NCBI RefSeq assembly: GCF_037042905.1 | Contig: NC_087251.1 | Coordinates: forward strand, 31,684,001-31,748,000 | Direction: 5' to 3' | Length of the DNA stretch: 64,000 nucleotides | Source: Lytechinus pictus | Taxonomy: Eukaryota | In this document: in pieces, positions 3,677-58,232 of the stretch | Layout of the letters: the number at the start of each line of letters is the position of its first letter | Position numbering within the stretch: position 1 is the stretch's first letter | Translations under genes and position numbers: made by a program | Notes under the pieces: model-generated | Database searches by the model: none | Seen by the model: the letters and a program-made list of their open reading frames with translations, nothing else | What the model was told of the DNA's origin: nothing

Positions 3677-3973
3677 ATGGCAGTTGATCGACTGTACTAC
3701 CTCGCTCTGATCGTCGTCGTCGTCATATCGTCGTCAAACGCCTTCGACGTTAGATCCAACTCAACTCATTTTGGTGTTTCTCTAAATGGAGTTGAACTCA
3801 TACGCCATTCTCCAGAGGACACATTCCTTTATGTTGGGTCTGGACTACCAACATTTGAAGGCCAATTTGGCAATTATGATGTCGATGATTACATTGAAGA
3901 ACGTATCGCTCTAGTCGACTTCGTTGCTGATGGTTTAAACGTTTTCACGTTTAGTCGACAAAATATGTTACAG
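3677..3973 (+). CDS. SQase-like gene exon 1 (signal peptide plus N-terminal domain)
   Basis: MAVDRLYYLALIVVVVISSSNAF...YVGSG...GNYDVDDYIEERIAL resembles the YihQ N-terminus; donor CAG|GTCAGT at 3974. Confidence 0.85.
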
Positions 3974-6900: not shown

Positions 6901-9900
6901 CATTCACAAAACATTATACAATTATCAATGTACACTGTTAGAAAAAACAGAGGATTTTACAGAAGCAAAATTAAAAAACAGATTTTACAGAAAGAAGTAA
7001 CCAAATCATTCTGTAAATTGTTAAAACAGGAAAGATTTTATACAATTTTTATAGAATTTTACAGAACAGGTCTGCTTTAAAAAGGGGGAAAACAGCTATA
7101 TTTACAATAAATTTGTAAGGTTACATACACCAAATATCTATTTTCTGTAATTTTACACAAATGCATGTAATATTACACAGTGCAGTGAGATTACAGGTGT
7201 TCTCGAGACTCTGCTGCATGAATTTTTTTTTAAGGAAGAAATTTTCTAACAGTGTATAGGGGAGATTGGGGTTAGTTGGAACATTTTTGACAAAAATAGC
7301 TGTAAAGTCCAAATAGATTTTATACAAGAAACAATCAATATGTCAGCTTAAAGTATGTATCTAAGGGCTTCAAATGTACCCATAAAATTCTTTAAATGAT
7401 GCTTCGGGCTGAAAATATTTATATCTAAATAAATAGAGTAAAGTTCACAGAGCAAAATGCTGAAAATTTAATCAAAATCTGATTACAAATAGCGAAGTTA
7501 TTGAAATTCTAATATTTTGTGAAAACAGTGATATGCACATCGTCAGGAATATTCATTAGGTGGGCTGATGATGTCATATCCACACCTTCCCTTTTCTTAT
7601 GTTATTACATGAAATCATAAAATTGTTTTATCATTTCATCATGTGTGAATGATATATCCCCCTTATAATGAAATAAGTTGCAGCAATGAATATCTAATGC
7701 ACTTCATCAGTTTTCAATCCGATGTTTTCAGTTTTTAAGGAAACAATTTGAATAAACATAATTTCATATAATAAAATACAAAATTACAAGAGGGGATATG
7801 ACATCATCAATTTGATCATTGAATATTCATAAAGACAAGCCTAAAACTATTTCACCGGATAATGCAAAACTTTAAAATGTCATAGCTTTGTTATTCCTTG
7901 TCCGATTTTGATCAAATTTTCAGTGTTTTGTTTGTCTGTTCAAATCATATTAACCTCAGCCTGGAGTATCCCTTTAACTCTATGATGGTTACTGAAAAAA
8001 TCCACCTTGAACAAGACCCATCTAGTGTGTTCCAACTTACCCCATATACGGGGTAAGTTGGAACATGGTATGGGGTAAGTCGGAACACTCCATGGTTAAT
8101 TCAGAATTATACTAAAACTTCTACATGGTTCTGGCTTATTTGCTTATTTTTTCAAGTTCAAGATATTAAAGGTGTGTATTCTGATTTTTAAAATTTATGT
8201 TTTCTATTACACATGACATAGGCTACAGCCACTCACGCAAGCCGACTGTGTAGTAGAATTCTGTATATTACTTTATGTGCGTTTGATTTTACAAGCAATA
8301 TCATGTACTTCTGCACCAAATTTACATGGCATTAATCAGATAATTATTTAAACAGTGTAGTTTTTTAACTGTAACTCAGTAATAAAATGGATATGACGGA
8401 TGACACTGTACATATGAAATACAAATAGTGGCTTTCATGACAAATGTATGATGCCAAAATCTTATGACTCATTAGGTAGGGGCAAAGTTTGGGGATGATT
8501 ATAGGAAAACACACCTTAACTGTACTTTGAACTATTTATCTATACCATACAATAACAATTTAAGGTCAGAACTGAATGAAGGAAAAGGTTAATTATACTA
8601 AGAAATAATGAACATAGTTGTCAAACATGAGATGAAATGCACCTAGCATGTAAAACAAAAATACATTGGGTAATTAATTTGGCAACTAATTACTAAACAA
8701 TCATATTGCAGTTAAAATTTTAAACCAAAACATTTGCTGTTCCAAATAGCCCCTTCAATTTTGTTCTAACTAACCCCAGAGGCCCATGTGACATTTAAAA
8801 GTTTACAGCACAAAAAAGGGACTTCACCATGGCATATTAATAACCTTATTTTGTAGCTTGGTACAAGTATAAATTTTACCCCAAACTGGCCTACTTGATC
8901 TATAAACTGCTCCAAGATAATAATACATTTCTGAAAGAAAAAAAATACTCGGAAGGTGAAAAAAAAAAATCCTTTCTAACTTCACCAGGCTTGTTGCACA
9001 TGTGTTGTCTGTAATATGGTGGATGGTTGTTGATAATGGCATTAAATTGAGGGCAGTATTATGGGTGTTATAGAAAATTACAATGTTTCAACTTACCCCG
9101 CGTTCCAACTAACCCCAATCTCCTCTATGGTAGCCTATAATCTAGGCGGAGGATGTAGTTATTGTCTTTGCTGTTAAGCTGAACACAAGCGATACGTCTG
9201 ATCTGGCAAAGACTACGCAATGTGGCTGCGTAGTCTTCGCCAGATCAGACGTATCGCTTACGTTCAGCATAACAGCAAAGACAATAACTGCAGCCTCCGC
9301 CTACATTATAGGCTACCCCTATGTAGGCCTATATTGAAAGGTTGGCCGAGTAAAGAAATCAAACTTGCGAAAGATAATAATAATGATAATACTAATAGCT
9401 CGCATTGTTTCTCTGTCAAATAAACACGATCTCATCACTCCTGTTTTGAAAGACCTCCATTGGTTGCCCGAAAGGATCGCATATAGTTTTCAAAATTTTA
9501 CTGTTGGTTTATCATTATCATCAATGGATCCGCACCCGATTACAACAAATCTCTTATTACCCCACTATCAACCTAGTCTGCTGGGCAAACCCTTCACTCG
9601 AGTTAAGGGTCTGAATGTGCAGCCTACTCATGCCTTGTGTACTGAAGGCTCTCTCGATTGGAAGAGCAAGTTTCGTATGTGCTAGTCTTTGCGTGGAGGC
9701 ACACTTGTTAATCAAAGTTCCAATCAGGGTCTGTGCCTGCAGACTACTATCAACCTGCTATCATCCCAATCTAGTCTCTTACATATTCCACTATCTAAAA
9801 AATCCTGGGGCGATCGAGCCTTTGCTCATGCCGGACCAGCCCTGTGGAATTATACCACAGGAGCTGAAGAACTCAAACTCTGCATCATCCTTTAAGGGCA

Positions 9901-12900
9901 ACCTAAAATTGCATTTGTTCACCAGCAGGTACTATGTTTGAATACAGACATTTTTCCTCATTTGTAATTTATCCTTTTTGTACTTCTTAGTTCTCTTTAC
10001 TTTTATGTTTTGCTCTCTTCTAAGCGCCTTGAGCATTTAATCAAAATGGAAAAGACGCTATATAAATCATATATATGTATCTAATTATTATATAGCGCCA
10101 TCTATCTAGGAATATTCTATTCCGATGGTGCCATGAGCCTAATTACATCAGGAGGGCTAAAGATATTTGTTCGACCCAACCCATTCGAAATTTTTCAATT
10201 TGATATTGCTGATTGACAAAAATGTATGAATATGATTCAAAATCTAACACTGATTCTAGAAATGGTAACTACTGAACTTCCTTTGCCCAAATTGGGAAGA
10301 TATATCAATGATTTGGCACTATTTTTTGACTGGCGGAAGAATTGGGGCTATTTTACTGTTTCAGTTGATGAATTTGATCCTATCATAGTTATCTTCATAA
10401 ATGACGATTTATTTTTAAAATGAGCTGGCTACGATACCCTTCTCTGGTCAGATATGGAATGTCAGATATATATCCTATCCAAAGGTAGTAAACATTTGAC
10501 CCTCTAATTTCACATTTATTTTTTATGAATTTTTGTTAAGTGCCATTTTAACACACAAGTCTATGGGGAATGTTTTACGCGCGTGAGACCTATAAGTAAT
10601 ACAGGCGAATTCCCTATAGTGGATGGAATACCTGCCAAAACTCCTCAGAAGCAAACAATTTCTAACTGATATCAATATGTTTAGTCATCAAGTGGTGCAA
10701 AAAATGGATTTAATGGCTTAGCAAGGCTATATCAGGTAAAGTTAGTAGGTATGTGTATGTAAGCCTAGGAATGCATATAGACTGGTCAATGAGAGTCTAG
10801 GCCTCTTTATGTTCTGATTCATCATTGGTTTGTGCTAGTGTATGATCACCTACTTAATGTTAGAAAGACCTTTACAAATTGCTCATGTTAAAATTGTTCT
10901 TTGGAATGGGGTAGAGAGCTAGAGATAGAAATTTCTGAACTTTACTGAAGAGAACTAGAGTGGAAGCTTCAAGAAGGTATTTAGAAAAAGGCACAGAGTA
11001 AGGTAAGGTATATAATAGTGCTCAACTAAGGAGGGAGGGGGGTGGCTGTGTGATCCAATCTTAGTCTAGCCCCCCCCCCCTCTTTATAAGCCATGACATC
11101 TATAAAATTATCTTTCTTTCTCTCTCCTCTTTCTATCTATTTATGTATCTCTTTCTTCTTACATCTGATAGGCAATAGCCCTAGGAAGATTTTGATATAA
11201 TAGTTCAAATGCAAATGTACTAAAGTAATATAATATGTTATTGTTTCCTCATTCAATCTCATGTACTTCTAGTAATTATGTTTGAGGCAGTTCTGGTATC
11301 CTGATATCTACACCAAATTTACATACACCTTTATATTACAAGGAGAATAGGGGCCTATATTGTCATTGCATTCACTGTTGGGCTATATGCAGGAAGGATA
11401 TGTATACATCCATATAGTGAATATAGCATGTATGAGTAGCACATTAAAATGGGTCATTGCATAGAAAATTCATTTTCAATGCATTTCTTTGTGCTAGTGT
11501 AAGTGTACAGATATAAAAGAATAGCAAAGTAGCTATTAAAAAAAATAAAATTCATAGGTCATATAATATAGGTGCCATGAGCCTAATTACATCAGGAGGG
11601 CTAAAGATATTTGTTCGACCCAACCCATTCGAAATTTTTCAATTTGATATTGCTGATTGACAAAAATGTATGAATATGATTCAAAATCTAACACTGATTC
11701 TAGAAATGGTAACTACTGAACTTCCTTTGCCCAAATTGGGAAGATATATCAATGATTTGGCACTATTTTTTGACTGGCGGAAGAATTGGGGCTATTTTAC
11801 TGTTTCAGTTGATGAATTTGATCCTATCATAGTTATCTTCATAAATGACGATTTATTTTTAAAATGAGCTGGCTACGATACCCTTCTCTGGTCAGATATG
11901 GAATGTCAGATATATATCCTATCCAAAGGTAGTAAACATTTGACCCTCTAATTTCACATTTATTTTTTATGAATTTTTGTTAAGTGCCATTTTAACACAC
12001 AAGTCTATGGGGAATGTTTTACGCGCGTGAGACCTATAAGTAATACAGGCGAATTCCCTATAGTGGATGGAATACCTGCCAAAACTCCTCAGAAGCAAAC
12101 AATTTCTAACTGATATCAATATGTTTAGTCATCAAGTGGTGCAAAAAATGGATTTAATGGCTTAGCAAGGCTATATCAGGTAAAGTTAGTAGGTATGTGT
12201 ATGTAAGCCTAGGAATGCATATAGACTGGTCAATGAGAGTCTAGGCCTCTTTATGTTCTGATTCATCATTGGTTTGTGCTAGTGTATGATCACCTACTTA
12301 ATGTTAGAAAGACCTTTACAAATTGCTCATGTTAAAATTGTTCTTTGGAATGGGGTAGAGAGCTAGAGATAGAAATTTCTGAACTTTACTGAAGAGAACT
12401 AGAGTGGAAGCTTCAAGAAGGTATTTAGAAAAAGGCACAGAGTAAGGTAAGGTATATAATAGTGCTCAACTAAGGAGGGAGGGGGGTGGCTGTGTGATCC
12501 AATCTTAGTCTAGCCCCCCCCCCCTCTTTATAAGCCATGACATCTATAAAATTATCTTTCTTTCTCTCTCCTCTTTCTATCTATTTATGTATCTCTTTCT
12601 TCTTACATCTGATAGGCAATAGCCCTAGGAAGATTTTGATATAATAGTTCAAATGCAAATGTACTAAAGTAATATAATATGTTATTGTTTCCTCATTCAA
12701 TCTCATGTACTTCTAGTAATTATGTTTGAGGCAGTTCTGGTATCCTGATATCTACACCAAATTTACATACACCTTTATATTACAAGGAGAATAGGGGCCT
12801 ATATTGTCATTGCATTCACTGTTGGGCTATATGCAGGAAGGATATGTATACATCCATATAGTGAATATAGCATGTATGAGTAGCACATTAAAATGGGTCA

Positions 12901-15900
12901 TTGCATAGAAAATTCATTTTCAATGCATTTCTTTGTGCTAGTGTAAGTGTACAGATATAAAAGAATAGCAAAGTAGCTATTAAAAAAAATAAAATTCATA
13001 GGTCATATAATATAGGTGCCATGAGCCTAATTACATCAGGAGGGCTAAAGATATTTGTTCGACCCAACCCATTCGAAATTTTTCAATTTGATATTGCTGA
13101 TTGACAAAAATGTATGAATATGATTCAAAATCTAACACTGATTCTAGAAATGGTAACTACTGAACTTCCTTTGCCCAAATTGGGAAGATATATCAATGAT
13201 TTGGCACTATTTTTTGACTGGCGGAAGAATTGGGGCTATTTTACTGTTTCAGTTGATGAATTTGATCCTATCATAGTTATCTTCATAAATGACGATTTAT
13301 TTTTAAAATGAGCTGGCTACGATACCCTTCTCTGGTCAGATATGGAATGTCAGATATATATCCTATCCAAAGGTAGTAAACATTTGACCCTCTAATTTCA
13401 CATTTATTTTTTATGAATTTTTGTTAAGTGCCATTTTAACACACAAGTCTATGGGGAATGTTTTACGCGCGTGAGACCTATAAGTAATACAGGCGAATTC
13501 CCTATAGTGGATGGAATACCTGCCAAAACTCCTCAGAAGCAAACAATTTCTAACTGATATCAATATGTTTAGTCATCAAGTGGTGCAAAAAATGGATTTA
13601 ATGGCTTAGCAAGGCTATATCAGGTAAAGTTAGTAGGTATGTGTATGTAAGCCTAGGAATGCATATAGACTGGTCAATGAGAGTCTAGGCCTCTTTATGT
13701 TCTGATTCATCATTGGTTTGTGCTAGTGTATGATCACCTACTTAATGTTAGAAAGACCTTTACAAATTGCTCATGTTAAAATTGTTCTTTGGAATGGGGT
13801 AGAGAGCTAGAGATAGAAATTTCTGAACTTTACTGAAGAGAACTAGAGTGGAAGCTTCAAGAAGGTATTTAGAAAAAGGCACAGAGTAAGGTAAGGTATA
13901 TAATAGTGCTCAACTAAGGAGGGAGGGGGGTGGCTGTGTGATCCAATCTTAGTCTAGCCCCCCCCCCCTCTTTATAAGCCATGACATCTATAAAATTATC
14001 TTTCTTTCTCTCTCCTCTTTCTATCTATTTATGTATCTCTTTCTTCTTACATCTGATAGGCAATAGCCCTAGGAAGATTTTGATATAATAGTTCAAATGC
14101 AAATGTACTAAAGTAATATAATATGTTATTGTTTCCTCATTCAATCTCATGTACTTCTAGTAATTATGTTTGAGGCAGTTCTGGTATCCTGATATCTACA
14201 CCAAATTTACATACACCTTTATATTACAAGGAGAATAGGGGCCTATATTGTCATTGCATTCACTGTTGGGCTATATGCAGGAAGGATATGTATACATCCA
14301 TATAGTGAATATAGCATGTATGAGTAGCACATTAAAATGGGTCATTGCATAGAAAATTCATTTTCAATGCATTTCTTTGTGCTAGTGTAAGTGTACAGAT
14401 ATAAAAGAATAGCAAAGTAGCTATTAAAAAAAATAAAATTCATAGGTCATATAATATAGGTGCCATGAGCCTAATTACATCAGGAGGGCTAAAGATATTT
14501 GTTCGACCCAACCCATTCGAAATTTTTCAATTTGATATTGCTGATTGACAAAAATGTATGAATATGATTCAAAATCTAACACTGATTCTAGAAATGGTAA
14601 CTACTGAACTTCCTTTGCCCAAATTGGGAAGATATATCAATGATTTGGCACTATTTTTTGACTGGCGGAAGAATTGGGGCTATTTTACTGTTTCAGTTGA
14701 TGAATTTGATCCTATCATAGTTATCTTCATAAATGACGATTTATTTTTAAAATGAGCTGGCTACGATACCCTTCTCTGGTCAGATATGGAATGTCAGATA
14801 TATATCCTATCCAAAGGTAGTAAACATTTGACCCTCTAATTTCACATTTATTTTTTATGAATTTTTGTTAAGTGCCATTTTAACACACAAGTCTATGGGG
14901 AATGTTTTACGCGCGTGAGACCTATAAGTAATACAGGCGAATTCCCTATAGTGGATGGAATACCTGCCAAAACTCCTCAGAAGCAAACAATTTCTAACTG
15001 ATATCAATATGTTTAGTCATCAAGTGGTGCAAAAAATGGATTTAATGGCTTAGCAAGGCTATATCAGGTAAAGTTAGTAGGTATGTGTATGTAAGCCTAG
15101 GAATGCATATAGACTGGTCAATGAGAGTCTAGGCCTCTTTATGTTCTGATTCATCATTGGTTTGTGCTAGTGTATGATCACCTACTTAATGTTAGAAAGA
15201 CCTTTACAAATTGCTCATGTTAAAATTGTTCTTTGGAATGGGGTAGAGAGCTAGAGATAGAAATTTCTGAACTTTACTGAAGAGAACTAGAGTGGAAGCT
15301 TCAAGAAGGTATTTAGAAAAAGGCACAGAGTAAGGTAAGGTATATAATAGTGCTCAACTAAGGAGGGAGGGGGGTGGCTGTGTGATCCAATCTTAGTCTA
15401 GCCCCCCCCCCCCCTCTTTATAAGCCATGACATCTATAAAATTATCTTTCTTTCTCTCTCCTCTTTCTATCTATTTATGTATCTCTTTCTTCTTACATCT
15501 GATAGGCAATAGCCCTAGGAAGATTTTGATATAATAGTTCAAATGCAAATGTACTAAAGTAATATAATATGTTATTGTTTCCTCATTCAATCTCATGTAC
15601 TTCTAGTAATTATGTTTGAGGCAGTTCTGGTATCCTGATATCTACACCAAATTTACATACACCTTTATATTACAAGGAGAATAGGGGCCTATATTGTCAT
15701 TGCATTCACTGTTGGGCTATATGCAGGAAGGATATGTATACATCCATATAGTGAATATAGCATGTATGAGTAGCACATTAAAATGGGTCATTGCATAGAA
15801 AATTCATTTTCAATGCATTTCTTTGTGCTAGTGTAAGTGTACAGATATAAAAGAATAGCAAAGTAGCTATTAAAAAAAATAAAATTCATAGGTCATATAA

Positions 15901-18900
15901 TATAAGTAATACAGGCGAATTCCCTATAGTGGATGGAATACCTGCCAAAACTCCTCAGAAGCAAACAATTTCTAACTGATATCAATATGTTTAGTCATCA
16001 AGTGGTGCAAAAAATGGATTTAATGGCTTAGCAAGGCTATATCAGGTAAAGTTAGTAGGTATGTGTATGTAAGCCTAGGAATGCATATAGACTGGTCAAT
16101 GAGAGTCTAGGCCTCTTTATGTTCTGATTCATCATTGGTTTGTGCTAGTGTATGATCACCTACTTAATGTTAGAAAGACCTTTACAAATTGCTCATGTTA
16201 AAATTGTTCTTTGGAATGGGGTAGAGAGCTAGAGATAGAAATTTCTGAACTTTACTGAAGAGAACTAGAGTGGAAGCTTCAAGAAGGTATTTAGAAAAAG
16301 GCACAGAGTAAGGTAAGGTATATAATAGTGCTCAACTAAGGAGGGAGGGGGGTGGCTGTGTGATCCAATCTTAGTCTAGCCCCCCCCCCCCCCTCTTTAT
16401 AAGCCATGACATCTATAAAATTATCTTTCTTTCTCTCTCCTCTTTCTATCTATTTATGTATCTCTTTCTTCTTACATCTGATAGGCAATAGCCCTAGGAA
16501 GATTTTGATATAATAGTTCAAATGCAAATGTACTAAAGTAATATAATATGTTATTGTTTCCTCATTCAATCTCATGTACTTCTAGTAATTATGTTTGAGG
16601 CAGTTCTGGTATCCTGATATCTACACCAAATTTACATACACCTTTATATTACAAGGAGAATAGGGGCCTATATTGTCATTGCATTCACTGTTGGGCTATA
16701 TGCAGGAAGGATATGTATACATCCATATAGTGAATATAGCATGTATGAGTAGCACATTAAAATGGGTCATTGCATAGAAAATTCATTTTCAATGCATTTC
16801 TTTGTGCTAGTGTAAGTGTACAGATATAAAAGAATAGCAAAGTAGCTATTAAAAAAAATAAAATTCATAGGTCATATAATATAGGTGCCATGAGCCTAAT
16901 TACATCAGGAGGGCTAAAGATATTTGTTCGACCCAACCCATTCGAAATTTTTCAATTTGATATTGCTGATTGACAAAAATGTATGAATATGATTCAAAAT
17001 CTAACACTGATTCTAGAAATGGTAACTACTGAACTTCCTTTGCCCAAATTGGGAAGATATATCAATGATTTGGCACTATTTTTTGACTGGCGGAAGAATT
17101 GGGGCTATTTTACTGTTTCAGTTGATGAATTTGATCCTATCATAGTTATCTTCATAAATGACGATTTATTTTTAAAATGAGCTGGCTACGATACCCTTCT
17201 CTGGTCAGATATGGAATGTCAGATATATATCCTATCCAAAGGTAGTAAACATTTGACCCTCTAATTTCACATTTATTTTTTATGAATTTTTGTTAAGTGC
17301 CATTTTAACACACAAGTCTATGGGGAATGTTTTACGCGCGTGAGACCTATAAGTAATACAGGCGAATTCCCTATAGTGGATGGAATACCTGCCAAAACTC
17401 CTCAGAAGCAAACAATTTCTAACTGATATCAATATGTTTAGTCATCAAGTGGTGCAAAAAATGGATTTAATGGCTTAGCAAGGCTATATCAGGTAAAGTT
17501 AGTAGGTATGTGTATGTAAGCCTAGGAATGCATATAGACTGGTCAATGAGAGTCTAGGCCTCTTTATGTTCTGATTCATCATTGGTTTGTGCTAGTGTAT
17601 GATCACCTACTTAATGTTAGAAAGACCTTTACAAATTGCTCATGTTAAAATTGTTCTTTGGAATGGGGTAGAGAGCTAGAGATAGAAATTTCTGAACTTT
17701 ACTGAAGAGAACTAGAGTGGAAGCTTCAAGAAGGTATTTAGAAAAAGGCACAGAGTAAGGTAAGGTATATAATAGTGCTCAACTAAGGAGGGAGGGGGGT
17801 GGCTGTGTGATCCAATCTTAGTCTAGCCCCCCCCCCCCTCTTTATAAGCCATGACATCTATAAAATTATCTTTCTTTCTCTCTCCTCTTTCTATCTATTT
17901 ATGTATCTCTTTCTTCTTACATCTGATAGGCAATAGCCCTAGGAAGATTTTGATATAATAGTTCAAATGCAAATGTACTAAAGTAATATAATATGTTATT
18001 GTTTCCTCATTCAATCTCATGTACTTCTAGTAATTATGTTTGAGGCAGTTCTGGTATCCTGATATCTACACCAAATTTACATACACCTTTATATTACAAG
18101 GAGAATAGGGGCCTATATTGTCATTGCATTCACTGTTGGGCTATATGCAGGAAGGATATGTATACATCCATATAGTGAATATAGCATGTATGAGTAGCAC
18201 ATTAAAATGGGTCATTGCATAGAAAATTCATTTTCAATGCATTTCTTTGTGCTAGTGTAAGTGTACAGATATAAAAGAATAGCAAAGTAGCTATTAAAAA
18301 AAATAAAATTCATAGGTCATATAATATAGGTGCCATGAGCCTAATTACATCAGGAGGGCTAAAGATATTTGTTCGACCCAACCCATTCGAAATTTTTCAA
18401 TTTGATATTGCTGATTGACAAAAATGTATGAATATGATTCAAAATCTAACACTGATTCTAGAAATGGTAACTACTGAACTTCCTTTGCCCAAATTGGGAA
18501 GATATATCAATGATTTGGCACTATTTTTTGACTGGCGGAAGAATTGGGGCTATTTTACTGTTTCAGTTGATGAATTTGATCCTATCATAGTTATCTTCAT
18601 AAATGACGATTTATTTTTAAAATGAGCTGGCTACGATACCCTTCTCTGGTCAGATATGGAATGTCAGATATATATCCTATCCAAAGGTAGTAAACATTTG
18701 ACCCTCTAATTTCACATTTATTTTTTATGAATTTTTGTTAAGTGCCATTTTAACACACAAGTCTATGGGGAATGTTTTACGCGCGTGAGACCTATAAGTA
18801 ATACAGGCGAATTCCCTATAGTGGATGGAATACCTGCCAAAACTCCTCAGAAGCAAACAATTTCTAACTGATATCAATATGTTTAGTCATCAAGTGGTGC

Positions 18901-21900
18901 AAAAAATGGATTTAATGGCTTAGCAAGGCTATATCAGGTAAAGTTAGTAGGTATGTGTATGTAAGCCTAGGAATGCATATAGACTGGTCAATGAGAGTCT
19001 AGGCCTCTTTATGTTCTGATTCATCATTGGTTTGTGCTAGTGTATGATCACCTACTTAATGTTAGAAAGACCTTTACAAATTGCTCATGTTAAAATTGTT
19101 CTTTGGAATGGGGTAGAGAGCTAGAGATAGAAATTTCTGAACTTTACTGAAGAGAACTAGAGTGGAAGCTTCAAGAAGGTATTTAGAAAAAGGCACAGAG
19201 TAAGGTAAGGTATATAATAGTGCTCAACTAAGGAGGGAGGGGGGTGGCTGTGTGATCCAATCTTAGTCTAGCCCCCCCCCCCCTCTTTATAAGCCATGAC
19301 ATCTATAAAATTATCTTTCTTTCTCTCTCCTCTTTCTATCTATTTATGTATCTCTTTCTTCTTACATCTGATAGGCAATAGCCCTAGGAAGATTTTGATA
19401 TAATAGTTCAAATGCAAATGTACTAAAGTAATATAATATGTTATTGTTTCCTCATTCAATCTCATGTACTTCTAGTAATTATGTTTGAGGCAGTTCTGGT
19501 ATCCTGATATCTACACCAAATTTACATACACCTTTATATTACAAGGAGAATAGGGGCCTATATTGTCATTGCATTCACTGTTGGGCTATATGCAGGAAGG
19601 ATATGTATACATCCATATAGTGAATATAGCATGTATGAGTAGCACATTAAAATGGGTCATTGCATAGAAAATTCATTTTCAATGCATTTCTTTGTGCTAG
19701 TGTAAGTGTACAGATATAAAAGAATAGCAAAGTAGCTATTAAAAAAAATAAAATTCATAGGTCATATAATATAGGTGCCATGAGCCTAATTACATCAGGA
19801 GGGCTAAAGATATTTGTTCGACCCAACCCATTCGAAATTTTTCAATTTGATATTGCTGATTGACAAAAATGTATGAATATGATTCAAAATCTAACACTGA
19901 TTCTAGAAATGGTAACTACTGAACTTCCTTTGCCCAAATTGGGAAGATATATCAATGATTTGGCACTATTTTTTGACTGGCGGAAGAATTGGGGCTATTT
20001 TACTGTTTCAGTTGATGAATTTGATCCTATCATAGTTATCTTCATAAATGACGATTTATTTTTAAAATGAGCTGGCTACGATACCCTTCTCTGGTCAGAT
20101 ATGGAATGTCAGATATATATCCTATCCAAAGGTAGTAAACATTTGACCCTCTAATTTCACATTTATTTTTTATGAATTTTTGTTAAGTGCCATTTTAACA
20201 CACAAGTCTATGGGGAATGTTTTACGCGCGTGAGACCTATAAGTAATACAGGCGAATTCCCTATAGTGGATGGAATACCTGCCAAAACTCCTCAGAAGCA
20301 AACAATTTCTAACTGATATCAATATGTTTAGTCATCAAGTGGTGCAAAAAATGGATTTAATGGCTTAGCAAGGCTATATCAGGTAAAGTTAGTAGGTATG
20401 TGTATGTAAGCCTAGGAATGCATATAGACTGGTCAATGAGAGTCTAGGCCTCTTTATGTTCTGATTCATCATTGGTTTGTGCTAGTGTATGATCACCTAC
20501 TTAATGTTAGAAAGACCTTTACAAATTGCTCATGTTAAAATTGTTCTTTGGAATGGGGTAGAGAGCTAGAGATAGAAATTTCTGAACTTTACTGAAGAGA
20601 ACTAGAGTGGAAGCTTCAAGAAGGTATTTAGAAAAAGGCACAGAGTAAGGTAAGGTATATAATAGTGCTCAACTAAGGAGGGAGGGGGGTGGCTGTGTGA
20701 TCCAATCTTAGTCTAGCCCCCCCCCCCTCTTTATAAGCCATGACATCTATAAAATTATCTTTCTTTCTCTCTCCTCTTTCTATCTATTTATGTATCTCTT
20801 TCTTCTTACATCTGATAGGCAATAGCCCTAGGAAGATTTTGATATAATAGTTCAAATGCAAATGTACTAAAGTAATATAATATGTTATTGTTTCCTCATT
20901 CAATCTCATGTACTTCTAGTAATTATGTTTGAGGCAGTTCTGGTATCCTGATATCTACACCAAATTTACATACACCTTTATATTACAAGGAGAATAGGGG
21001 CCTATATTGTCATTGCATTCACTGTTGGGCTATATGCAGGAAGGATATGTATACATCCATATAGTGAATATAGCATGTATGAGTAGCACATTAAAATGGG
21101 TCATTGCATAGAAAATTCATTTTCAATGCATTTCTTTGTGCTAGTGTAAGTGTACAGATATAAAAGAATAGCAAAGTAGCTATTAAAAAAAATAAAATTC
21201 ATAGGTCATATAATATAGGTGCCATGAGCCTAATTACATCAGGAGGGCTAAAGATATTTGTTCGACCCAACCCATTCGAAATTTTTCAATTTGATATTGC
21301 TGATTGACAAAAATGTATGAATATGATTCAAAATCTAACACTGATTCTAGAAATGGTAACTACTGAACTTCCTTTGCCCAAATTGGGAAGATATATCAAT
21401 GATTTGGCACTATTTTTTGACTGGCGGAAGAATTGGGGCTATTTTACTGTTTCAGTTGATGAATTTGATCCTATCATAGTTATCTTCATAAATGACGATT
21501 TATTTTTAAAATGAGCTGGCTACGATACCCTTCTCTGGTCAGATATGGAATGTCAGATATATATCCTATCCAAAGGTAGTAAACATTTGACCCTCTAATT
21601 TCACATTTATTTTTTATGAATTTTTGTTAAGTGCCATTTTAACACACAAGTCTATGGGGAATGTTTTACGCGCGTGAGACCTATAAGTAATACAGGCGAA
21701 TTCCCTATAGTGGATGGAATACCTGCCAAAACTCCTCAGAAGCAAACAATTTCTAACTGATATCAATATGTTTAGTCATCAAGTGGTGCAAAAAATGGAT
21801 TTAATGGCTTAGCAAGGCTATATCAGGTAAAGTTAGTAGGTATGTGTATGTAAGCCTAGGAATGCATATAGACTGGTCAATGAGAGTCTAGGCCTCTTTA

Positions 21901-24900
21901 TGTTCTGATTCATCATTGGTTTGTGCTAGTGTATGATCACCTACTTAATGTTAGAAAGACCTTTACAAATTGCTCATGTTAAAATTGTTCTTTGGAATGG
22001 GGTAGAGAGCTAGAGATAGAAATTTCTGAACTTTACTGAAGAGAACTAGAGTGGAAGCTTCAAGAAGGTATTTAGAAAAAGGCACAGAGTAAGGTAAGGT
22101 ATATAATAGTGCTCAACTAAGGAGGGAGGGGGGTGGCTGTGTGATCCAATCTTAGTCTAGCCCCCCCCCCCCCTCTTTATAAGCCATGACATCTATAAAA
22201 TTATCTTTCTTTCTCTCTCCTCTTTCTATCTATTTATGTATCTCTTTCTTCTTACATCTGATAGGCAATAGCCCTAGGAAGATTTTGATATAATAGTTCA
22301 AATGCAAATGTACTAAAGTAATATAATATGTTATTGTTTCCTCATTCAATCTCATGTACTTCTAGTAATTATGTTTGAGGCAGTTCTGGTATCCTGATAT
22401 CTACACCAAATTTACATACACCTTTATATTACAAGGAGAATAGGGGCCTATATTGTCATTGCATTCACTGTTGGGCTATATGCAGGAAGGATATGTATAC
22501 ATCCATATAGTGAATATAGCATGTATGAGTAGCACATTAAAATGGGTCATTGCATAGAAAATTCATTTTCAATGCATTTCTTTGTGCTAGTGTAAGTGTA
22601 CAGATATAAAAGAATAGCAAAGTAGCTATTAAAAAAAATAAAATTCATAGGTCATATAATATAAGTAATACAGGCGAATTCCCTATAGTGGATGGAATAC
22701 CTGCCAAAACTCCTCAGAAGCAAACAATTTCTAACTGATATCAATATGTTTAGTCATCAAGTGGTGCAAAAAATGGATTTAATGGCTTAGCAAGGCTATA
22801 TCAGGTAAAGTTAGTAGGTATGTGTATGTAAGCCTAGGAATGCATATAGACTGGTCAATGAGAGTCTAGGCCTCTTTATGTTCTGATTCATCATTGGTTT
22901 GTGCTAGTGTATGATCACCTACTTAATGTTAGAAAGACCTTTACAAATTGCTCATGTTAAAATTGTTCTTTGGAATGGGGTAGAGAGCTAGAGATAGAAA
23001 TTTCTGAACTTTACTGAAGAGAACTAGAGTGGAAGCTTCAAGAAGGTATTTAGAAAAAGGCACAGAGTAAGGTAAGGTATATAATAGTGCTCAACTAAGG
23101 AGGGAGGGGGGTGGCTGTGTGATCCAATCTTAGTCTAGCCCCCCCCCCCTCTTTATAAGCCATGACATCTATAAAATTATCTTTCTTTCTCTCTCCTCTT
23201 TCTATCTATTTATGTATCTCTTTCTTCTTACATCTGATAGGCAATAGCCCTAGGAAGATTTTGATATAATAGTTCAAATGCAAATGTACTAAAGTAATAT
23301 AATATGTTATTGTTTCCTCATTCAATCTCATGTACTTCTAGTAATTATGTTTGAGGCAGTTCTGGTATCCTGATATCTACACCAAATTTACATACACCTT
23401 TATATTACAAGGAGAATAGGGGCCTATATTGTCATTGCATTCACTGTTGGGCTATATGCAGGAAGGATATGTATACATCCATATAGTGAATATAGCATGT
23501 ATGAGTAGCACATTAAAATGGGTCATTGCATAGAAAATTCATTTTCAATGCATTTCTTTGTGCTAGTGTAAGTGTACAGATATAAAAGAATAGCAAAGTA
23601 GCTATTAAAAAAAATAAAATTCATAGGTCATATAATATAGGTGCCATGAGCCTAATTACATCAGGAGGGCTAAAGATATTTGTTCGACCCAACCCATTCG
23701 AAATTTTTCAATTTGATATTGCTGATTGACAAAAATGTATGAATATGATTCAAAATCTAACACTGATTCTAGAAATGGTAACTACTGAACTTCCTTTGCC
23801 CAAATTGGGAAGATATATCAATGATTTGGCACTATTTTTTGACTGGCGGAAGAATTGGGGCTATTTTACTGTTTCAGTTGATGAATTTGATCCTATCATA
23901 GTTATCTTCATAAATGACGACGATTTATTTTTAAAATGAGCTGGCTACGATACCCTTCTCTGGTCAGATATGGAATGTCAGATATATATCCTATCCAAAG
24001 GTAGTAAACATTTGACCCTCTAATTTCACATTTATTTTTTATGAATTTTTGTTAAGTGCCATTTTAACACACAAGTCTATGGGGAATGTTTTACGCGCGT
24101 GAGACCTATAAGTAATACAGGCGAATTCCCTATAGTGGATGGAATACCTGCCAAAACTCCTCAGAAGCAAACAATTTCTAACTGATATCAATATGTTTAG
24201 TCATCAAGTGGTGCAAAAAATGGATTTAATGGCTTAGCAAGGCTATATCAGGTAAAGTTAGTAGGTATGTGTATGTAAGCCTAGGAATGCATATAGACTG
24301 GTCAATGAGAGTCTAGGCCTCTTTATGTTCTGATTCATCATTGGTTTGTGCTAGTGTATGATCACCTACTTAATGTTAGAAAGACCTTTACAAATTGCTC
24401 ATGTTAAAATTGTTCTTTGGAATGGGGTAGAGAGCTAGAGATAGAAATTTCTGAACTTTACTGAAGAGAACTAGAGTGGAAGCTTCAAGAAGGTATTTAG
24501 AAAAAGGCACAGAGTAAGGTAAGGTATATAATAGTGCTCAACTAAGGAGGGAGGGGGGTGGCTGTGTGATCCAATCTTAGTCTAGCCCCCCCCCCCCTCT
24601 TTATAAGCCATGACATCTATAAAATTATCTTTCTTTCTCTCTCCTCTTTCTATCTATTTATGTATCTCTTTCTTCTTACATCTGATAGGCAATAGCCCTA
24701 GGAAGATTTTGATATAATAGTTCAAATGCAAATGTACTAAAGTAATATAATATGTTATTGTTTCCTCATTCAATCTCATGTACTTCTAGTAATTATGTTT
24801 GAGGCAGTTCTGGTATCCTGATATCTACACCAAATTTACATACACCTTTATATTACAAGGAGAATAGGGGCCTATATTGTCATTGCATTCACTGTTGGGC

Positions 24901-27900
24901 TATATGCAGGAAGGATATGTATACATCCATATAGTGAATATAGCATGTATGAGTAGCACATTAAAATGGGTCATTGCATAGAAAATTCATTTTCAATGCA
25001 TTTCTTTGTGCTAGTGTAAGTGTACAGATATAAAAGAATAGCAAAGTAGCTATTAAAAAAAATAAAATTCATAGGTCATATAATATAGGTGCCATGAGCC
25101 TAATTACATCAGGAGGGCTAAAGATATTTGTTCGACCCAACCCATTCGAAATTTTTCAATTTGATATTGCTGATTGACAAAAATGTATGAATATGATTCA
25201 AAATCTAACACTGATTCTAGAAATGGTAACTACTGAACTTCCTTTGCCCAAATTGGGAAGATATATCAATGATTTGGCACTATTTTTTGACTGGCGGAAG
25301 AATTGGGGCTATTTTACTGTTTCAGTTGATGAATTTGATCCTATCATAGTTATCTTCATAAATGACGATTTATTTTTAAAATGAGCTGGCTACGATACCC
25401 TTCTCTGGTCAGATATGGAATGTCAGATATATATCCTATCCAAAGGTAGTAAACATTTGACCCTCTAATTTCACATTTATTTTTTATGAATTTTTGTTAA
25501 GTGCCATTTTAACACACAAGTCTATGGGGAATGTTTTACGCGCGTGAGACCTATAAGTAATACAGGCGAATTCCCTATAGTGGATGGAATACCTGCCAAA
25601 ACTCCTCAGAAGCAAACAATTTCTAACTGATATCAATATGTTTAGTCATCAAGTGGTGCAAAAAATGGATTTAATGGCTTAGCAAGGCTATATCAGGTAA
25701 AGTTAGTAGGTATGTGTATGTAAGCCTAGGAATGCATATAGACTGGTCAATGAGAGTCTAGGCCTCTTTATGTTCTGATTCATCATTGGTTTGTGCTAGT
25801 GTATGATCACCTACTTAATGTTAGAAAGACCTTTACAAATTGCTCATGTTAAAATTGTTCTTTGGAATGGGGTAGAGAGCTAGAGATAGAAATTTCTGAA
25901 CTTTACTGAAGAGAACTAGAGTGGAAGCTTCAAGAAGGTATTTAGAAAAAGGCACAGAGTAAGGTAAGGTATATAATAGTGCTCAACTAAGGAGGGAGGG
26001 GGGTGGCTGTGTGATCCAATCTTAGTCTAGCCCCCCCCCCCCTCTTTATAAGCCATGACATCTATAAAATTATCTTTCTTTCTCTCTCCTCTTTCTATCT
26101 ATTTATGTATCTCTTTCTTCTTACATCTGATAGGCAATAGCCCTAGGAAGATTTTGATATAATAGTTCAAATGCAAATGTACTAAAGTAATATAATATGT
26201 TATTGTTTCCTCATTCAATCTCATGTACTTCTAGTAATTATGTTTGAGGCAGTTCTGGTATCCTGATATCTACACCAAATTTACATACACCTTTATATTA
26301 CAAGGAGAATAGGGGCCTATATTGTCATTGCATTCACTGTTGGGCTATATGCAGGAAGGATATGTATACATCCATATAGTGAATATAGCATGTATGAGTA
26401 GCACATTAAAATGGGTCATTGCATAGAAAATTCATTTTCAATGCATTTCTTTGTGCTAGTGTAAGTGTACAGATATAAAAGAATAGCAAAGTAGCTATTA
26501 AAAAAAATAAAATTCATAGGTCATATAATATAGGTGCCATGAGCCTAATTACATCAGGAGGGCTAAAGATATTTGTTCGACCCAACCCATTCGAAATTTT
26601 TCAATTTGATATTGCTGATTGACAAAAATGTATGAATATGATTCAAAATCTAACACTGATTCTAGAAATGGTAACTACTGAACTTCCTTTGCCCAAATTG
26701 GGAAGATATATCAATGATTTGGCACTATTTTTTGACTGGCGGAAGAATTGGGGCTATTTTACTGTTTCAGTTGATGAATTTGATCCTATCATAGTTATCT
26801 TCATAAATGACGATTTATTTTTAAAATGAGCTGGCTACGATACCCTTCTCTGGTCAGATATGGAATGTCAGATATATATCCTATCCAAAGGTAGTAAACA
26901 TTTGACCCTCTAATTTCACATTTATTTTTTATGAATTTTTGTTAAGTGCCATTTTAACACACAAGTCTATGGGGAATGTTTTACGCGCGTGAGACCTATA
27001 AGTAATACAGGCGAATTCCCTATAGTGGATGGAATACCTGCCAAAACTCCTCAGAAGCAAACAATTTCTAACTGATATCAATATGTTTAGTCATCAAGTG
27101 GTGCAAAAAATGGATTTAATGGCTTAGCAAGGCTATATCAGGTAAAGTTAGTAGGTATGTGTATGTAAGCCTAGGAATGCATATAGACTGGTCAATGAGA
27201 GTCTAGGCCTCTTTATGTTCTGATTCATCATTGGTTTGTGCTAGTGTATGATCACCTACTTAATGTTAGAAAGACCTTTACAAATTGCTCATGTTAAAAT
27301 TGTTCTTTGGAATGGGGTAGAGAGCTAGAGATAGAAATTTCTGAACTTTACTGAAGAGAACTAGAGTGGAAGCTTCAAGAAGGTATTTAGAAAAAGGCAC
27401 AGAGTAAGGTAAGGTATATAATAGTGCTCAACTAAGGAGGGAGGGGGGTGGCTGTGTGATCCAATCTTAGTCTAGCCCCCCCCCCCTCTTTATAAGCCAT
27501 GACATCTATAAAATTATCTTTCTTTCTCTCTCCTCTTTCTATCTATTTATGTATCTCTTTCTTCTTACATCTGATAGGCAATAGCCCTAGGAAGATTTTG
27601 ATATAATAGTTCAAATGCAAATGTACTAAAGTAATATAATATGTTATTGTTTCCTCATTCAATCTCATGTACTTCTAGTAATTATGTTTGAGGCAGTTCT
27701 GGTATCCTGATATCTACACCAAATTTACATACACCTTTATATTACAAGGAGAATAGGGGCCTATATTGTCATTGCATTCACTGTTGGGCTATATGCAGGA
27801 AGGATATGTATACATCCATATAGTGAATATAGCATGTATGAGTAGCACATTAAAATGGGTCATTGCATAGAAAATTCATTTTCAATGCATTTCTTTGTGC

Positions 27901-30900
27901 TAGTGTAAGTGTACAGATATAAAAGAATAGCAAAGTAGCTATTAAAAAAAATAAAATTCATAGGTCATATAATATAGGTGCCATGAGCCTAATTACATCA
28001 GGAGGGCTAAAGATATTTGTTCGACCCAACCCATTCGAAATTTTTCAATTTGATATTGCTGATTGACAAAAATGTATGAATATGATTCAAAATCTAACAC
28101 TGATTCTAGAAATGGTAACTACTGAACTTCCTTTGCCCAAATTGGGAAGATATATCAATGATTTGGCACTATTTTTTGACTGGCGGAAGAATTGGGGCTA
28201 TTTTACTGTTTCAGTTGATGAATTTGATCCTATCATAGTTATCTTCATAAATGACGATTTATTTTTAAAATGAGCTGGCTACGATACCCTTCTCTGGTCA
28301 GATATGGAATGTCAGATATATATCCTATCCAAAGGTAGTAAACATTTGACCCTCTAATTTCACATTTATTTTTTATGAATTTTTGTTAAGTGCCATTTTA
28401 ACACACAAGTCTATGGGGAATGTTTTACGCGCGTGAGACCTATAAGTAATACAGGCGAATTCCCTATAGTGGATGGAATACCTGCCAAAACTCCTCAGAA
28501 GCAAACAATTTCTAACTGATATCAATATGTTTAGTCATCAAGTGGTGCAAAAAATGGATTTAATGGCTTAGCAAGGCTATATCAGGTAAAGTTAGTAGGT
28601 ATGTGTATGTAAGCCTAGGAATGCATATAGACTGGTCAATGAGAGTCTAGGCCTCTTTATGTTCTGATTCATCATTGGTTTGTGCTAGTGTATGATCACC
28701 TACTTAATGTTAGAAAGACCTTTACAAATTGCTCATGTTAAAATTGTTCTTTGGAATGGGGTAGAGAGCTAGAGATAGAAATTTCTGAACTTTACTGAAG
28801 AGAACTAGAGTGGAAGCTTCAAGAAGGTATTTAGAAAAAGGCACAGAGTAAGGTAAGGTATATAATAGTGCTCAACTAAGGAGGGAGGGGGGTGGCTGTG
28901 TGATCCAATCTTAGTCTAGCCCCCCCCCCCCCTCTTTATAAGCCATGACATCTATAAAATTATCTTTCTTTCTCTCTCCTCTTTCTATCTATTTATGTAT
29001 CTCTTTCTTCTTACATCTGATAGGCAATAGCCCTAGGAAGATTTTGATATAATAGTTCAAATGCAAATGTACTAAAGTAATATAATATGTTATTGTTTCC
29101 TCATTCAATCTCATGTACTTCTAGTAATTATGTTTGAGGCAGTTCTGGTATCCTGATATCTACACCAAATTTACATACACCTTTATATTACAAGGAGAAT
29201 AGGGGCCTATATTGTCATTGCATTCACTGTTGGGCTATATGCAGGAAGGATATGTATACATCCATATAGTGAATATAGCATGTATGAGTAGCACATTAAA
29301 ATGGGTCATTGCATAGAAAATTCATTTTCAATGCATTTCTTTGTGCTAGTGTAAGTGTACAGATATAAAAGAATAGCAAAGTAGCTATTAAAAAAAATAA
29401 AATTCATAGGTCATATAATATAAGTAATACAGGCGAATTCCCTATAGTGGATGGAATACCTGCCAAAACTCCTCAGAAGCAAACAATTTCTAACTGATAT
29501 CAATATGTTTAGTCATCAAGTGGTGCAAAAAATGGATTTAATGGCTTAGCAAGGCTATATCAGGTAAAGTTAGTAGGTATGTGTATGTAAGCCTAGGAAT
29601 GCATATAGACTGGTCAATGAGAGTCTAGGCCTCTTTATGTTCTGATTCATCATTGGTTTGTGCTAGTGTATGATCACCTACTTAATGTTAGAAAGACCTT
29701 TACAAATTGCTCATGTTAAAATTGTTCTTTGGAATGGGGTAGAGAGCTAGAGATAGAAATTTCTGAACTTTACTGAAGAGAACTAGAGTGGAAGCTTCAA
29801 GAAGGTATTTAGAAAAAGGCACAGAGTAAGGTAAGGTATATAATAGTGCTCAACTAAGGAGGGAGGGGGGTGGCTGTGTGATCCAATCTTAGTCTAGCCC
29901 CCCCCCCCTCTTTATAAGCCATGACATCTATAAAATTATCTTTCTTTCTCTCTCCTCTTTCTATCTATTTATGTATCTCTTTCTTCTTACATCTGATAGG
30001 CAATAGCCCTAGGAAGATTTTGATATAATAGTTCAAATGCAAATGTACTAAAGTAATATAATATGTTATTGTTTCCTCATTCAATCTCATGTACTTCTAG
30101 TAATTATGTTTGAGGCAGTTCTGGTATCCTGATATCTACACCAAATTTACATACACCTTTATATTACAAGGAGAATAGGGGCCTATATTGTCATTGCATT
30201 CACTGTTGGGCTATATGCAGGAAGGATATGTATACATCCATATAGTGAATATAGCATGTATGAGTAGCACATTAAAATGGGTCATTGCATAGAAAATTCA
30301 TTTTCAATGCATTTCTTTGTGCTAGTGTAAGTGTACAGATATAAAAGAATAGCAAAGTAGCTATTAAAAAAAATAAAATTCATAGGTCATATAATATAGG
30401 TGCCATGAGCCTAATTACATCAGGAGGGCTAAAGATATTTGTTCGACCCAACCCATTCGAAATTTTTCAATTTGATATTGCTGATTGACAAAAATGTATG
30501 AATATGATTCAAAATCTAACACTGATTCTAGAAATGGTAACTACTGAACTTCCTTTGCCCAAATTGGGAAGATATATCAATGATTTGGCACTATTTTTTG
30601 ACTGGCGGAAGAATTGGGGCTATTTTACTGTTTCAGTTGATGAATTTGATCCTATCATAGTTATCTTCATAAATGACGATTTATTTTTAAAATGAGCTGG
30701 CTACGATACCCTTCTCTGGTCAGATATGGAATGTCAGATATATATCCTATCCAAAGGTAGTAAACATTTGACCCTCTAATTTCACATTTATTTTTTATGA
30801 ATTTTTGTTAAGTGCCATTTTAACACACAAGTCTATGGGGAATGTTTTACGCGCGTGAGACCTATAAGTAATACAGGCGAATTCCCTATAGTGGATGGAA

Positions 30901-33900
30901 TACCTGCCAAAACTCCTCAGAAGCAAACAATTTCTAACTGATATCAATATGTTTAGTCATCAAGTGGTGCAAAAAATGGATTTAATGGCTTAGCAAGGCT
31001 ATATCAGGTAAAGTTAGTAGGTATGTGTATGTAAGCCTAGGAATGCATATAGACTGGTCAATGAGAGTCTAGGCCTCTTTATGTTCTGATTCATCATTGG
31101 TTTGTGCTAGTGTATGATCACCTACTTAATGTTAGAAAGACCTTTACAAATTGCTCATGTTAAAATTGTTCTTTGGAATGGGGTAGAGAGCTAGAGATAG
31201 AAATTTCTGAACTTTACTGAAGAGAACTAGAGTGGAAGCTTCAAGAAGGTATTTAGAAAAAGGCACAGAGTAAGGTAAGGTATATAATAGTGCTCAACTA
31301 AGGAGGGAGGGGGGTGGCTGTGTGATCCAATCTTAGTCTAGCCCCCCCCCCCCTCTTTATAAGCCATGACATCTATAAAATTATCTTTCTTTCTCTCTCC
31401 TCTTTCTATCTATTTATGTATCTCTTTCTTCTTACATCTGATAGGCAATAGCCCTAGGAAGATTTTGATATAATAGTTCAAATGCAAATGTACTAAAGTA
31501 ATATAATATGTTATTGTTTCCTCATTCAATCTCATGTACTTCTAGTAATTATGTTTGAGGCAGTTCTGGTATCCTGATATCTACACCAAATTTACATACA
31601 CCTTTATATTACAAGGAGAATAGGGGCCTATATTGTCATTGCATTCACTGTTGGGCTATATGCAGGAAGGATATGTATACATCCATATAGTGAATATAGC
31701 ATGTATGAGTAGCACATTAAAATGGGTCATTGCATAGAAAATTCATTTTCAATGCATTTCTTTGTGCTAGTGTAAGTGTACAGATATAAAAGAATAGCAA
31801 AGTAGCTATTAAAAAAAATAAAATTCATAGGTCATATAATATAGGTGCCATGAGCCTAATTACATCAGGAGGGCTAAAGATATTTGTTCGACCCAACCCA
31901 TTCGAAATTTTTCAATTTGATATTGCTGATTGACAAAAATGTATGAATATGATTCAAAATCTAACACTGATTCTAGAAATGGTAACTACTGAACTTCCTT
32001 TGCCCAAATTGGGAAGATATATCAATGATTTGGCACTATTTTTTGACTGGCGGAAGAATTGGGGCTATTTTACTGTTTCAGTTGATGAATTTGATCCTAT
32101 CATAGTTATCTTCATAAATGACGATTTATTTTTAAAATGAGCTGGCTACGATACCCTTCTCTGGTCAGATATGGAATGTCAGATATATATCCTATCCAAA
32201 GGTAGTAAACATTTGACCCTCTAATTTCACATTTATTTTTTATGAATTTTTGTTAAGTGCCATTTTAACACACAAGTCTATGGGGAATGTTTTACGCGCG
32301 TGAGACCCGATGCGCGTTATTATTATTACCCCGGCTTTATCTCGAGCTGCCTCTCCGCGCTAATGCATTCAATGAATTAATCCAGCTAGGTACCCATTCA
32401 CCTCACCTGGTTTGAGATAAGATAAACCCTGTACAGTAATTCTTACGAAAAATCCACTTTAGATCATTTTATGATAGTTTGTTGGGAACGGAAATTCTTA
32501 TATTGGCTGTACATGCAGGCGTGGATCCATGGGGCCGACGCCCCCCCCCCTTAAAAAGGGAGAGGGGGAAAGAAAGATTGGAAAGAAAAAGAAGGGGATG
32601 GGAGGAAAGAAAAGGGAAGGAAAGTGAGAGGGGGAAAGAAGGGGAAAGTGAAAGAGAAGGGAAGAAATGAGGGAGAGGAAGAAAGGAAACAGAGAAAGAA
32701 AATGAAAAGAAGGGAAATGAAGGGGGAAAGAAAGGGAAGAAAGAGAGATAGAAAGCAAAGGGAAAAGGGGAGGAAAAAGAAAAGAAAGGAGAATAGAGAT
32801 AGAGAAGGAAAAGAAGGGAGAGTGCGAGAGGAAAGGTGAGGCAGACAAAAGAGGAGGAAAAGAATGGGAAAGGAGAGACGAATCAAACAAAGGAAATAGA
32901 GAGGAAAAAGGAGAGAGAAGAGAATGGATAAGGGAGAGAGGAAAGAAAGGGCAGAGAAACAAAATGAAGGTCAAGACTGAGGGAGGGGGCTATAAACATT
33001 CATGGAAGAGAGGATGATTATAGAAGAAAAAGATAACACGGAATGAGAAAGAAAAAAAAGAGGATGAAAAAGAAATTTTAAAAAGGGATACCCTCTCTTA
33101 GCTTAGGTATAAACGGCAGGGCTCGCTGAGTTTGCCGGAGGCAAGGGGACCGTACCCCCCCTCCCCCCCATAAAAAAGGGGGAGAGAAAAAAAAGGCATT
33201 TGATGGGAAGGGAAATGAAAATAAAAGGAAAATTGAAAGGGGACTAATGGAGAAGGGGAGAAAGAGATCTTGCCGAAACGGTTCTGTTCCCCCTCCTCCA
33301 TGTAGTAGCAAAGGACAAGGTGGGGCAAAGATGCGTTTAAAAAATGAAGACGTCCGGGGCCGTACGGCCTAGTCATCATGCTGCTTGCTCACCCCTCCGA
33401 ATAATTAAAAGATAAGCACTTAGTCTAAAAAAAATAGGATAAAACGAAGGAGATGGAGGCGGAAATGAAGAGAAATAAATAAAGAAAAGAAAAATATAAA
33501 AATTAGACAGAAAAAAAGGAAAAGCGTTTGCGAAATGTGGTGTTAATTTCCCCCCACAAAATTGTGAACTTCGAGCCTGTTGTTCCGAATAAATGGCTGT
33601 GGGAAAGTCTCCATAAGATGTAGGCGGTCCGATGAGAGAAAAATAAAAAGAATAAAAGAAGAGGACAAAAATAAATAAAAAGATGAAGAATGAAGAAAAT
33701 CAGAGGAGGGGGATTTGCAAATTGCCTAAAAGGAACAAAATGAATATCTCGCGTACTACGCGGTTGAATTGTCCGTTTAATGAGATACACATTTAATATG
33801 TTTAGAGGATAAGACGGCTATAAAAATATAAAAGAACTTACGTTTCTGGTCGCGCTTCAAGCATTCATTATTTTGAACAAAATGAGATACCCATCCTGTT

Positions 33901-39696: not shown

Positions 39697-40260
39697 AGGG
39701 ATGGGTCTAGGCTGGAGATATTTATATCTCAATTAATGGAGTAAAATTAACAAAGCAAAATGCTGAAAATTAGATCAAAATCGGATAACAAATAAAAAAA
39801 GTTATTGAAATTTAATGATTTGCATTATTTGGTGAAACAGTTCTAGGCATGTCTTTATGAATATTCATTAGGTGGGCTGATGTCATATCCCTACTTGTTC
39901 TTTTGTATTTTATTATATGAAATTAGGTTTATCCAAAAAATTTCTACCAAAAACAATTGGATTGACAACTGATTAAGAGCATTATTTATTGCTGCAACTT
40001 ATTTCATCATAATGGAGACACATCATCTAAATGAAACATTTATGATTTCATGTAATAACATAAGAAAAAGGAAAGTGGGGATGTGACATCATCAGCCCAC
40101 CTCATGAATATTTATGACGATGTGCATATAACTGTTTTCACAAAATATTGATAACATTTAGAATTCAATAACTTTGTTATCCAATTTTGATGAAATTTCC
40201 AGCATTTTGCTCTGTGAATTTTACTCTATTTATTTTTATATAAACATTTTCAGCCCGGGT
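39697..40260. mobile_element. Non-autonomous DNA transposon (same family as ~7405-7975)
   Basis: Shared gaatattcattaggtgggctgatg and gcaaaatgctgaaaatt motifs, with internal inverted arms. Confidence 0.65.
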
Positions 40261-45129: not shown

Positions 45130-45305
45130 ATAGCATTTATGAGGCGCTGATTATCTAGTTGCCTATTCAATAGCATACTATATATTACCCCGGCTTTAGC
45201 TCCAGCTGCTGAAAGTGCTTGGTGCATTCAAGGAATTAATCCTGCCGGGTACCCCTTTATCTAACCTGGGTTGAGTGCGGCACAACATGGATCAATTTCT
45301 TGCAG
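45130..45305 (-). mobile_element. SINE fragment in the CRLS1 3' UTR region
   Basis: ttaccccggctttagct..gcattcaaggaattaatcctgccgggtacc shared with the copies at 49310-49400 and 32325-32415. Confidence 0.65.
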
Positions 45306-58140: not shown

Positions 58141-58232
58141 GTCAGCTAGCTAGCTCAGAAAGGCTGCAAGCAGAAAAGAAAGAAAGAAACCTTAATTTTA
58201 TTTGCCTTAAAAGCCGATAAGTCTCGTCTATC

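Follow-up and report, generated by a model that had tools for sequence, protein, structure and literature searches.

Architecture of the locus

We analysed a 64,000-nucleotide window of the Lytechinus pictus genome (assembly GCF_037042905.1, contig NC_087251.1, positions 31,684,001 to 31,748,000 of the forward strand), which contains a sulfoquinovosidase-like gene and, within its first intron, a 22-kb tandem array of transposon units. All coordinates below are positions in this window. The large reading frame downstream of the array has as its nearest relative a sulfoquinovosidase-like GH31 protein of L. pictus. Exon 1 of this gene (3677..3973, plus strand), located by tblastn and followed by GT, has 100/100 residues the same as the L. 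pictus entry, versus 88% for L. variegatus. Exons 2-5 (34728..38860, plus strand; about 34728-34915, 36333-36705, 37054-38276 and 38756-38860) were placed by tblastn and match Pfam GH31. Intron 1 (3974..34727, plus strand, with GT and AG borders) is 30,754 bp long; subtracting the array and one copy of its target-site duplication (TSD) leaves 8,569 bp by arithmetic. The array thus more than triples the first intron of the gene.

The array spans 10127..32307 (22,181 bp) and is a multimer of the KolobokP-N1_LyPi type; oriented as in the published consensus, it is on the minus strand and runs antisense to the host gene. It is composed of a module, the long terminal direct repeat (LTDR), and a spacer, the internal region (INT). 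Read directly, 14 LTDRs and 16 INTs follow one another in the order (M S M S M S M S S) three times and then M S M, where M is an LTDR and S an INT. The first LTDR (10127..10590, minus strand) measures 464 bp and has GG...CC ends and an imperfect 16-bp terminal inverted repeat (TIR). Module mapping placed the other LTDRs, also on the minus strand, at starts 11571, 13015, 14459, 16884, 18329, 19774, 21218, 23640, 25088, 26533, 27977, 30399 and 31844. Thirteen of the 14 modules are identical at 464 bp, and the odd one (23640-24106) has 3 extra bases. Module termini are complementary at 8/12 and 11/16 bases, the latter figure being reached by 0.10% of 200,000 random 464-mers drawn from the flanks.

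The first INT (10591..11570, minus strand) is a non-coding unit of 980 bp that runs from TATA to TATA. All 16 INTs are 980-983 bp long, and their sole difference is the length of one poly-C run (11-14). Comparison of the 14 LTDRs and 16 INTs revealed no substitutions between copies; the units are of common descent. The array closes with an LTDR-INT-LTDR (30399..32307, minus strand) that amounts to one complete 1.9-kb monomer, the monomer size in the array being 1,908 bp. Neighbouring INTs are connected via a common LTDR at 12 of the 15 spacer-to-spacer steps. At the other three the LTDR is absent and a single TATA is common to both INTs (joints at 15901..15904, 22660..22663 and 29419..29422). 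These joints are letter-identical.

The array is flanked by a 4-bp TSD, CGAT, read directly on the plus strand at 10123..10126 and 32308..32311; two random 4-mers match by chance in 0.6% of draws. The insertion lies at the edge of one copy of an old repeat that is also found at 45183 and 49305. Dispersed repeat pieces that are 76-84% alike occur at 32321-32416, 45183-45275, 49305-49510, 52681-52820 and 50124-50192, and we take this repeat to be SINE-like (a short interspersed element). Just left of the array, 9338-10065 is presumably the degraded 3' end of an L2/CR1-like long interspersed element (LINE), judging from its translation, and Pfam returned no match for this LINE-like stretch. To the right, 32540-33380 is a purine-rich low-complexity tract with short G- and C-rich ends around it.

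Much of this anatomy had been described in the original prediction, an earlier reading of the same DNA from its letters. An intronic array was proposed, and it does sit between exons 1 and 2 of the GH31 gene. Module mapping bears out a complete module at both array ends, the CGAT duplication is present, and the GG...CC ends with imperfect TIRs and the TATA at internal module borders were recovered, the last at every internal border. The regular alternation of module and spacer that it described holds for 12 of the 15 steps and breaks down at the three module-less joints, which had been missed.

The statement that neither a transposase nor a reverse transcriptase is encoded also stands. Coding capacity is lacking in all six frames of module-spacer-module, where stop-free stretches reach at most 68 codons. 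An Rfam scan of 9900-12100 gave a single match at chance level (E 0.88). Elsewhere in the window no further module or spacer copy was found; the best match (E 0.001) extends across 48 low-complexity bases. The array escapes Tandem Repeats Finder, whose maximum period is 500. We class it as very young selfish DNA, and nothing points to a function.

Assignment to KolobokP-N1_LyPi

In the sections of PMC9587614 (Kojima and Bao 2022) that we consulted, to which all our statements about that paper refer, KolobokP elements have LTDRs of ~450 or 660 bp with RR...YY ends. These LTDRs carry short TIRs of 11-18 bp, perfect or imperfect, and TSDs of 3-5 bp lie outside the outermost LTDRs. The array agrees on each point, with 464-bp LTDRs at both of its ends, GG...CC termini, 11/16 complementary bases within each LTDR and CGAT on both sides. 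The same paper presents multimers as a normal state of KolobokP elements, in the form (LTDR-INT)n-LTDR with outer TSDs, together with INT-INT joints that keep one TATA and lose 3-4 bp. Here, too, LTDRs are common to neighbouring units and INT-INT joints have one TATA.

Four KolobokP families are given for L. pictus. Table S1 of PMC9587614 lists KolobokP-N1_LyPi with an LTDR of 464/465 bp, a TSD of 4 bp and 400 LTDR copies; KolobokP-N2_LyPi at 1,904 bp with 313 LTDR and 156 INT copies; and the autonomous KolobokP-1_LyPi at 4,984 bp with 44 LTDR and 10 INT copies. An autonomous Kolobok partner, which the original prediction had suggested looking for, is therefore on record in the same species. 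It was the DDD/E transposase that led to the discovery of the autonomous KolobokP member. The INTs of the array contain neither a DDD/E transposase nor a His-Me nuclease, so we file the array as non-autonomous, as expected for an N family.

Among the families compared, the closest is KolobokP-N1_LyPi. Read on the minus strand, the module equals KolobokP-N1_LyPi-LTDR in length and agrees with it at 456/464 positions, leaving 8 differences (counted by eye). The spacer, compared over 30863-31843, is ~95% alike to the second unit of KolobokP-N1_LyPi-I (by eye). Likeness to this family thus comprises the LTDR (~98%) and INT (~95%, both by eye), TATA INT ends, a 4-bp TSD and the one-TATA joint. The two differ in that the published internal consensus is ~2.56 kb and holds two INT units, whereas the array has a plain 980-bp unit. 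In that consensus, the first INT has a palindromic-looking insert of ~590 bp and the units are joined at one TATA (by eye). Judged from these sequences, the plain N1 monomer would be ~1.9 kb rather than 3,486 bp, and a two-unit consensus may explain the low count of INT copies (3, compared with 400 LTDRs).

The other two families compared are less close. KolobokP-N2_LyPi is related in sequence and has the same monomer size (1,904 bp, against 1,908 bp in the array) but is visibly less alike than N1 in LTDR and INT, an impression rather than a count. The LTDR of KolobokP-1_LyPi is ~92% like the module (by eye) and its INT ends resemble those of the array spacer; the array differs from it in having no transposase and no His-Me nuclease. 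On the strength of its LTDR and INT sequence, the array belongs to the published family KolobokP-N1_LyPi and is an already known kind of element in a known state. The KolobokP-type reading put forward earlier is thereby borne out to family level. Given this match and the published multimers and joints, every structural point described above is a published property of a named family. The original prediction also had the element turning into satellite DNA, which overstates the case, multimers being a normal and published condition of KolobokP. Satellites form long, abundant and often heterochromatic arrays that persist across individuals, and the material for such a comparison is one 22-kb array in one assembly.

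We also drew on public sequencing data, aligning contigs of 4 public runs (of 24 listed) to 8600-11570. Among the matches listed, contigs of all four runs carry the published letter at 10168, 10190, 10317 and 10497, at nearly full depth. At a further by-eye difference, 10381, they carry the letter of the sister families. These contig letters back the by-eye count of differences. All 14 modules carry non-published letters at the five positions, so the array derives from one founder copy. One contig among the matches listed departs from the array exactly at the module end, 10590. None of the matches listed provides a loose end or a piece that crosses 10126 into the right flank, and none of the 24 runs listed contained half of the unit's words.

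Block structure and probable growth of the array

The array is periodic above the level of the monomer. Three higher-order blocks, each holding four LTDRs and five INTs, follow one another at 10127..16883 (6,757 bp), 16884..23639 (6,756 bp) and 23640..30398 (6,759 bp), and block 3 differs from block 2 only by the 3 extra bases of its first LTDR. No substitutions separate the three blocks, and their joints lie five INTs apart, giving a 6.76-kb recurrence. Poly-C lengths agree at lag 5 in 8/11 pairs (p 0.0015, or 0.004 allowing lags 1-7), and a run of 13 C is found only in the three INTs that precede the joints (p 0.0017). The recurrence of the joints with the same poly-C lengths argues that one module was lost once and that the block was then copied twice.

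The simplest history would comprise a CGAT-duplicating insertion, unit-wise growth, one LTDR loss and two block copies. One KolobokP-N1_LyPi copy (LTDR-INT-LTDR, ~1.9 kb) or a short multimer would have inserted into intron 1 and duplicated CGAT, using a transposase supplied in trans, most likely from KolobokP-1_LyPi. Following the published model, its two identical LTDRs would have allowed sister-chromatid mispairing, and unequal exchange would have added LTDR-INT units without altering the outer TSD. Loss of one internal LTDR would have left an INT-TATA-INT scar, probably in this order of events. The 6.76-kb block (4 LTDR + 5 INT) bearing the scar would then have been copied twice more, either by unequal exchange between copies offset by five units or by reinsertion from a circle. 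We regard this combination of founder element, in-trans transposase, unit growth, LTDR loss and block copying as the best explanation of the array, with a probability of roughly 0.93.

Several points weigh against this history or leave it less firmly anchored. Equal spacing of the joints is not significant by itself (49/455 placements, p 0.11). Lengths of homopolymer runs are prone to error, and an assembler that used one block more than once could also have produced their repetition. The identities to the published consensus are by-eye counts rather than computed values, and dispersed copies with their own TSDs are known to us via the table counts of PMC9587614, to which the contig that departs at 10590 adds one further sign of dispersal. 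The left flank continues the old repeat weakly, with p 0.02 against one copy and p 0.39 against the other. Finally, no contig with an empty site appeared among the matches listed for 8600-11570 (4/24 runs), which is evidence neither way.

Alternative explanations

We considered four alternatives. The family may be right while the three-fold 6.76-kb periodicity, and with it part of the 22 kb, is an artefact in which a shorter multimer with one joint was over-expanded during assembly. An array of 22 kb exceeds typical accurate long reads, and among the matches listed no piece spans even the 3-kb stretch at 8600-11570. The absence of substitutions between blocks and the mere 3 bases separating blocks 2 and 3 point the same way. 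However, over-expansion would need two mis-joins at the same offset, and the blocks are not identical, since they differ in poly-C lengths and in the 3 extra bases. We consider an artefact unlikely, while giving it appreciable weight. Alternatively, a regular multimer of 17 LTDRs could have lost three of them in separate excisions, which would account for the missing modules. LTDR excision is strongly suggested for KolobokP in PMC9587614, the joints are as clean as each such event should leave them, and their equal spacing has a p of only 0.11 by itself. Yet each joint comes with the same pattern of poly-C lengths (p about 0.002), and the joints are letter-identical where the footprints published in PMC9587614 vary by 1-5 bp, making separate excisions decidedly improbable.

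Repeated independent insertion into one hot spot is the double-insertion route of transposable element tandems in Drosophila. In the consulted parts of McGurk and Barbash 2018 (PMC5932611), double insertion is the main source of dimers, and one hobo array of ~16 tandem copies grew from a dimer. That array resembles ours in copy number, in occupying one near-gene locus and in its single origin. It differs in beginning as a double insertion with target motif between units, and not from built-in direct repeats. In the L. pictus array neighbours share one LTDR without target motif between units, and every unit carries the same letters, which are rare in the family; we judge repeated insertion very unlikely indeed. 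The original prediction had itself named a tandem array of a terminal-repeat retrotransposon in miniature (TRIM) as its alternative, and direct repeats common to neighbouring units are the layout of a TRIM array too. But the ends are GG...CC instead of TG...CA, the spacer ends in TATA on both strands, so that, read directly, neither a TGG primer site nor a purine tract adjoins the repeat, and the family that the sequence matches is one of DNA transposons, with a DDD/E transposase in its autonomous member. We rejected a TRIM or other long-terminal-repeat retrotransposon on these ends, the absent primer site and purine tract and the KolobokP-N1_LyPi match, and we give it next to no credence.

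Other features of the window

A CDP-alcohol phosphatidyltransferase gene (Pfam PF01066), which we take to be cardiolipin synthase-like, has exons on the minus strand at 52790-54390. Palindromic elements resembling miniature inverted-repeat transposable elements occur at 2345-2540, 9129-9317, 35060-35218, 35280-35920, 39710-40255 and 57821-58143. Two pairs of inverted copies are present (4511-4866 with 5070-5424, and 7405-7935 with 39750-40257), as are older, diverged tandem repeats at 315-1689 (period 176 bp), 34404-34684 (142 bp) and 48197-48736 (163 bp).

Implications for KolobokP multimers

Since the family is already published, along with its multimers and the joints that lack an LTDR, our finding mainly annotates one locus. 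Its added value is a long, mutation-free example whose internal landmarks order events. Mollusc KolobokP multimers in PMC9587614 take the layouts (LTDR-INT)n-LTDR and LTDR-(INT)n-LTDR, and in the examined part of Figure S3 the longest contains 5 INTs, compared with 16 INTs and a five-unit period here. Neither this insertion nor its 16-unit length appears in the examined parts of that paper, and in the open-licence literature we found no publication that deals with this locus or with higher-order arrays of KolobokP.

In the growth models of PMC9587614 each step contributes one LTDR-INT, with unequal crossover accounting for subsequent changes, and the nuclease-induced unequal-crossover model awaits experiment according to the consulted part of PMC13565253. 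If the assembly is right, the array probably records the loss of one LTDR and, after it, two rounds of copying of a five-unit block, and KolobokP arrays would grow in multi-unit jumps. KolobokP multimers would then expand beyond the one LTDR-INT at a time of the nuclease-induced model, and a higher-order repeat would have been born within a gene, in few generations, from a 1.9-kb transposon. As the species is a laboratory sea urchin that also has an autonomous partner, the locus would offer a convenient test bed for that model, one at which the proposed endonuclease-induced unequal crossover could be followed.

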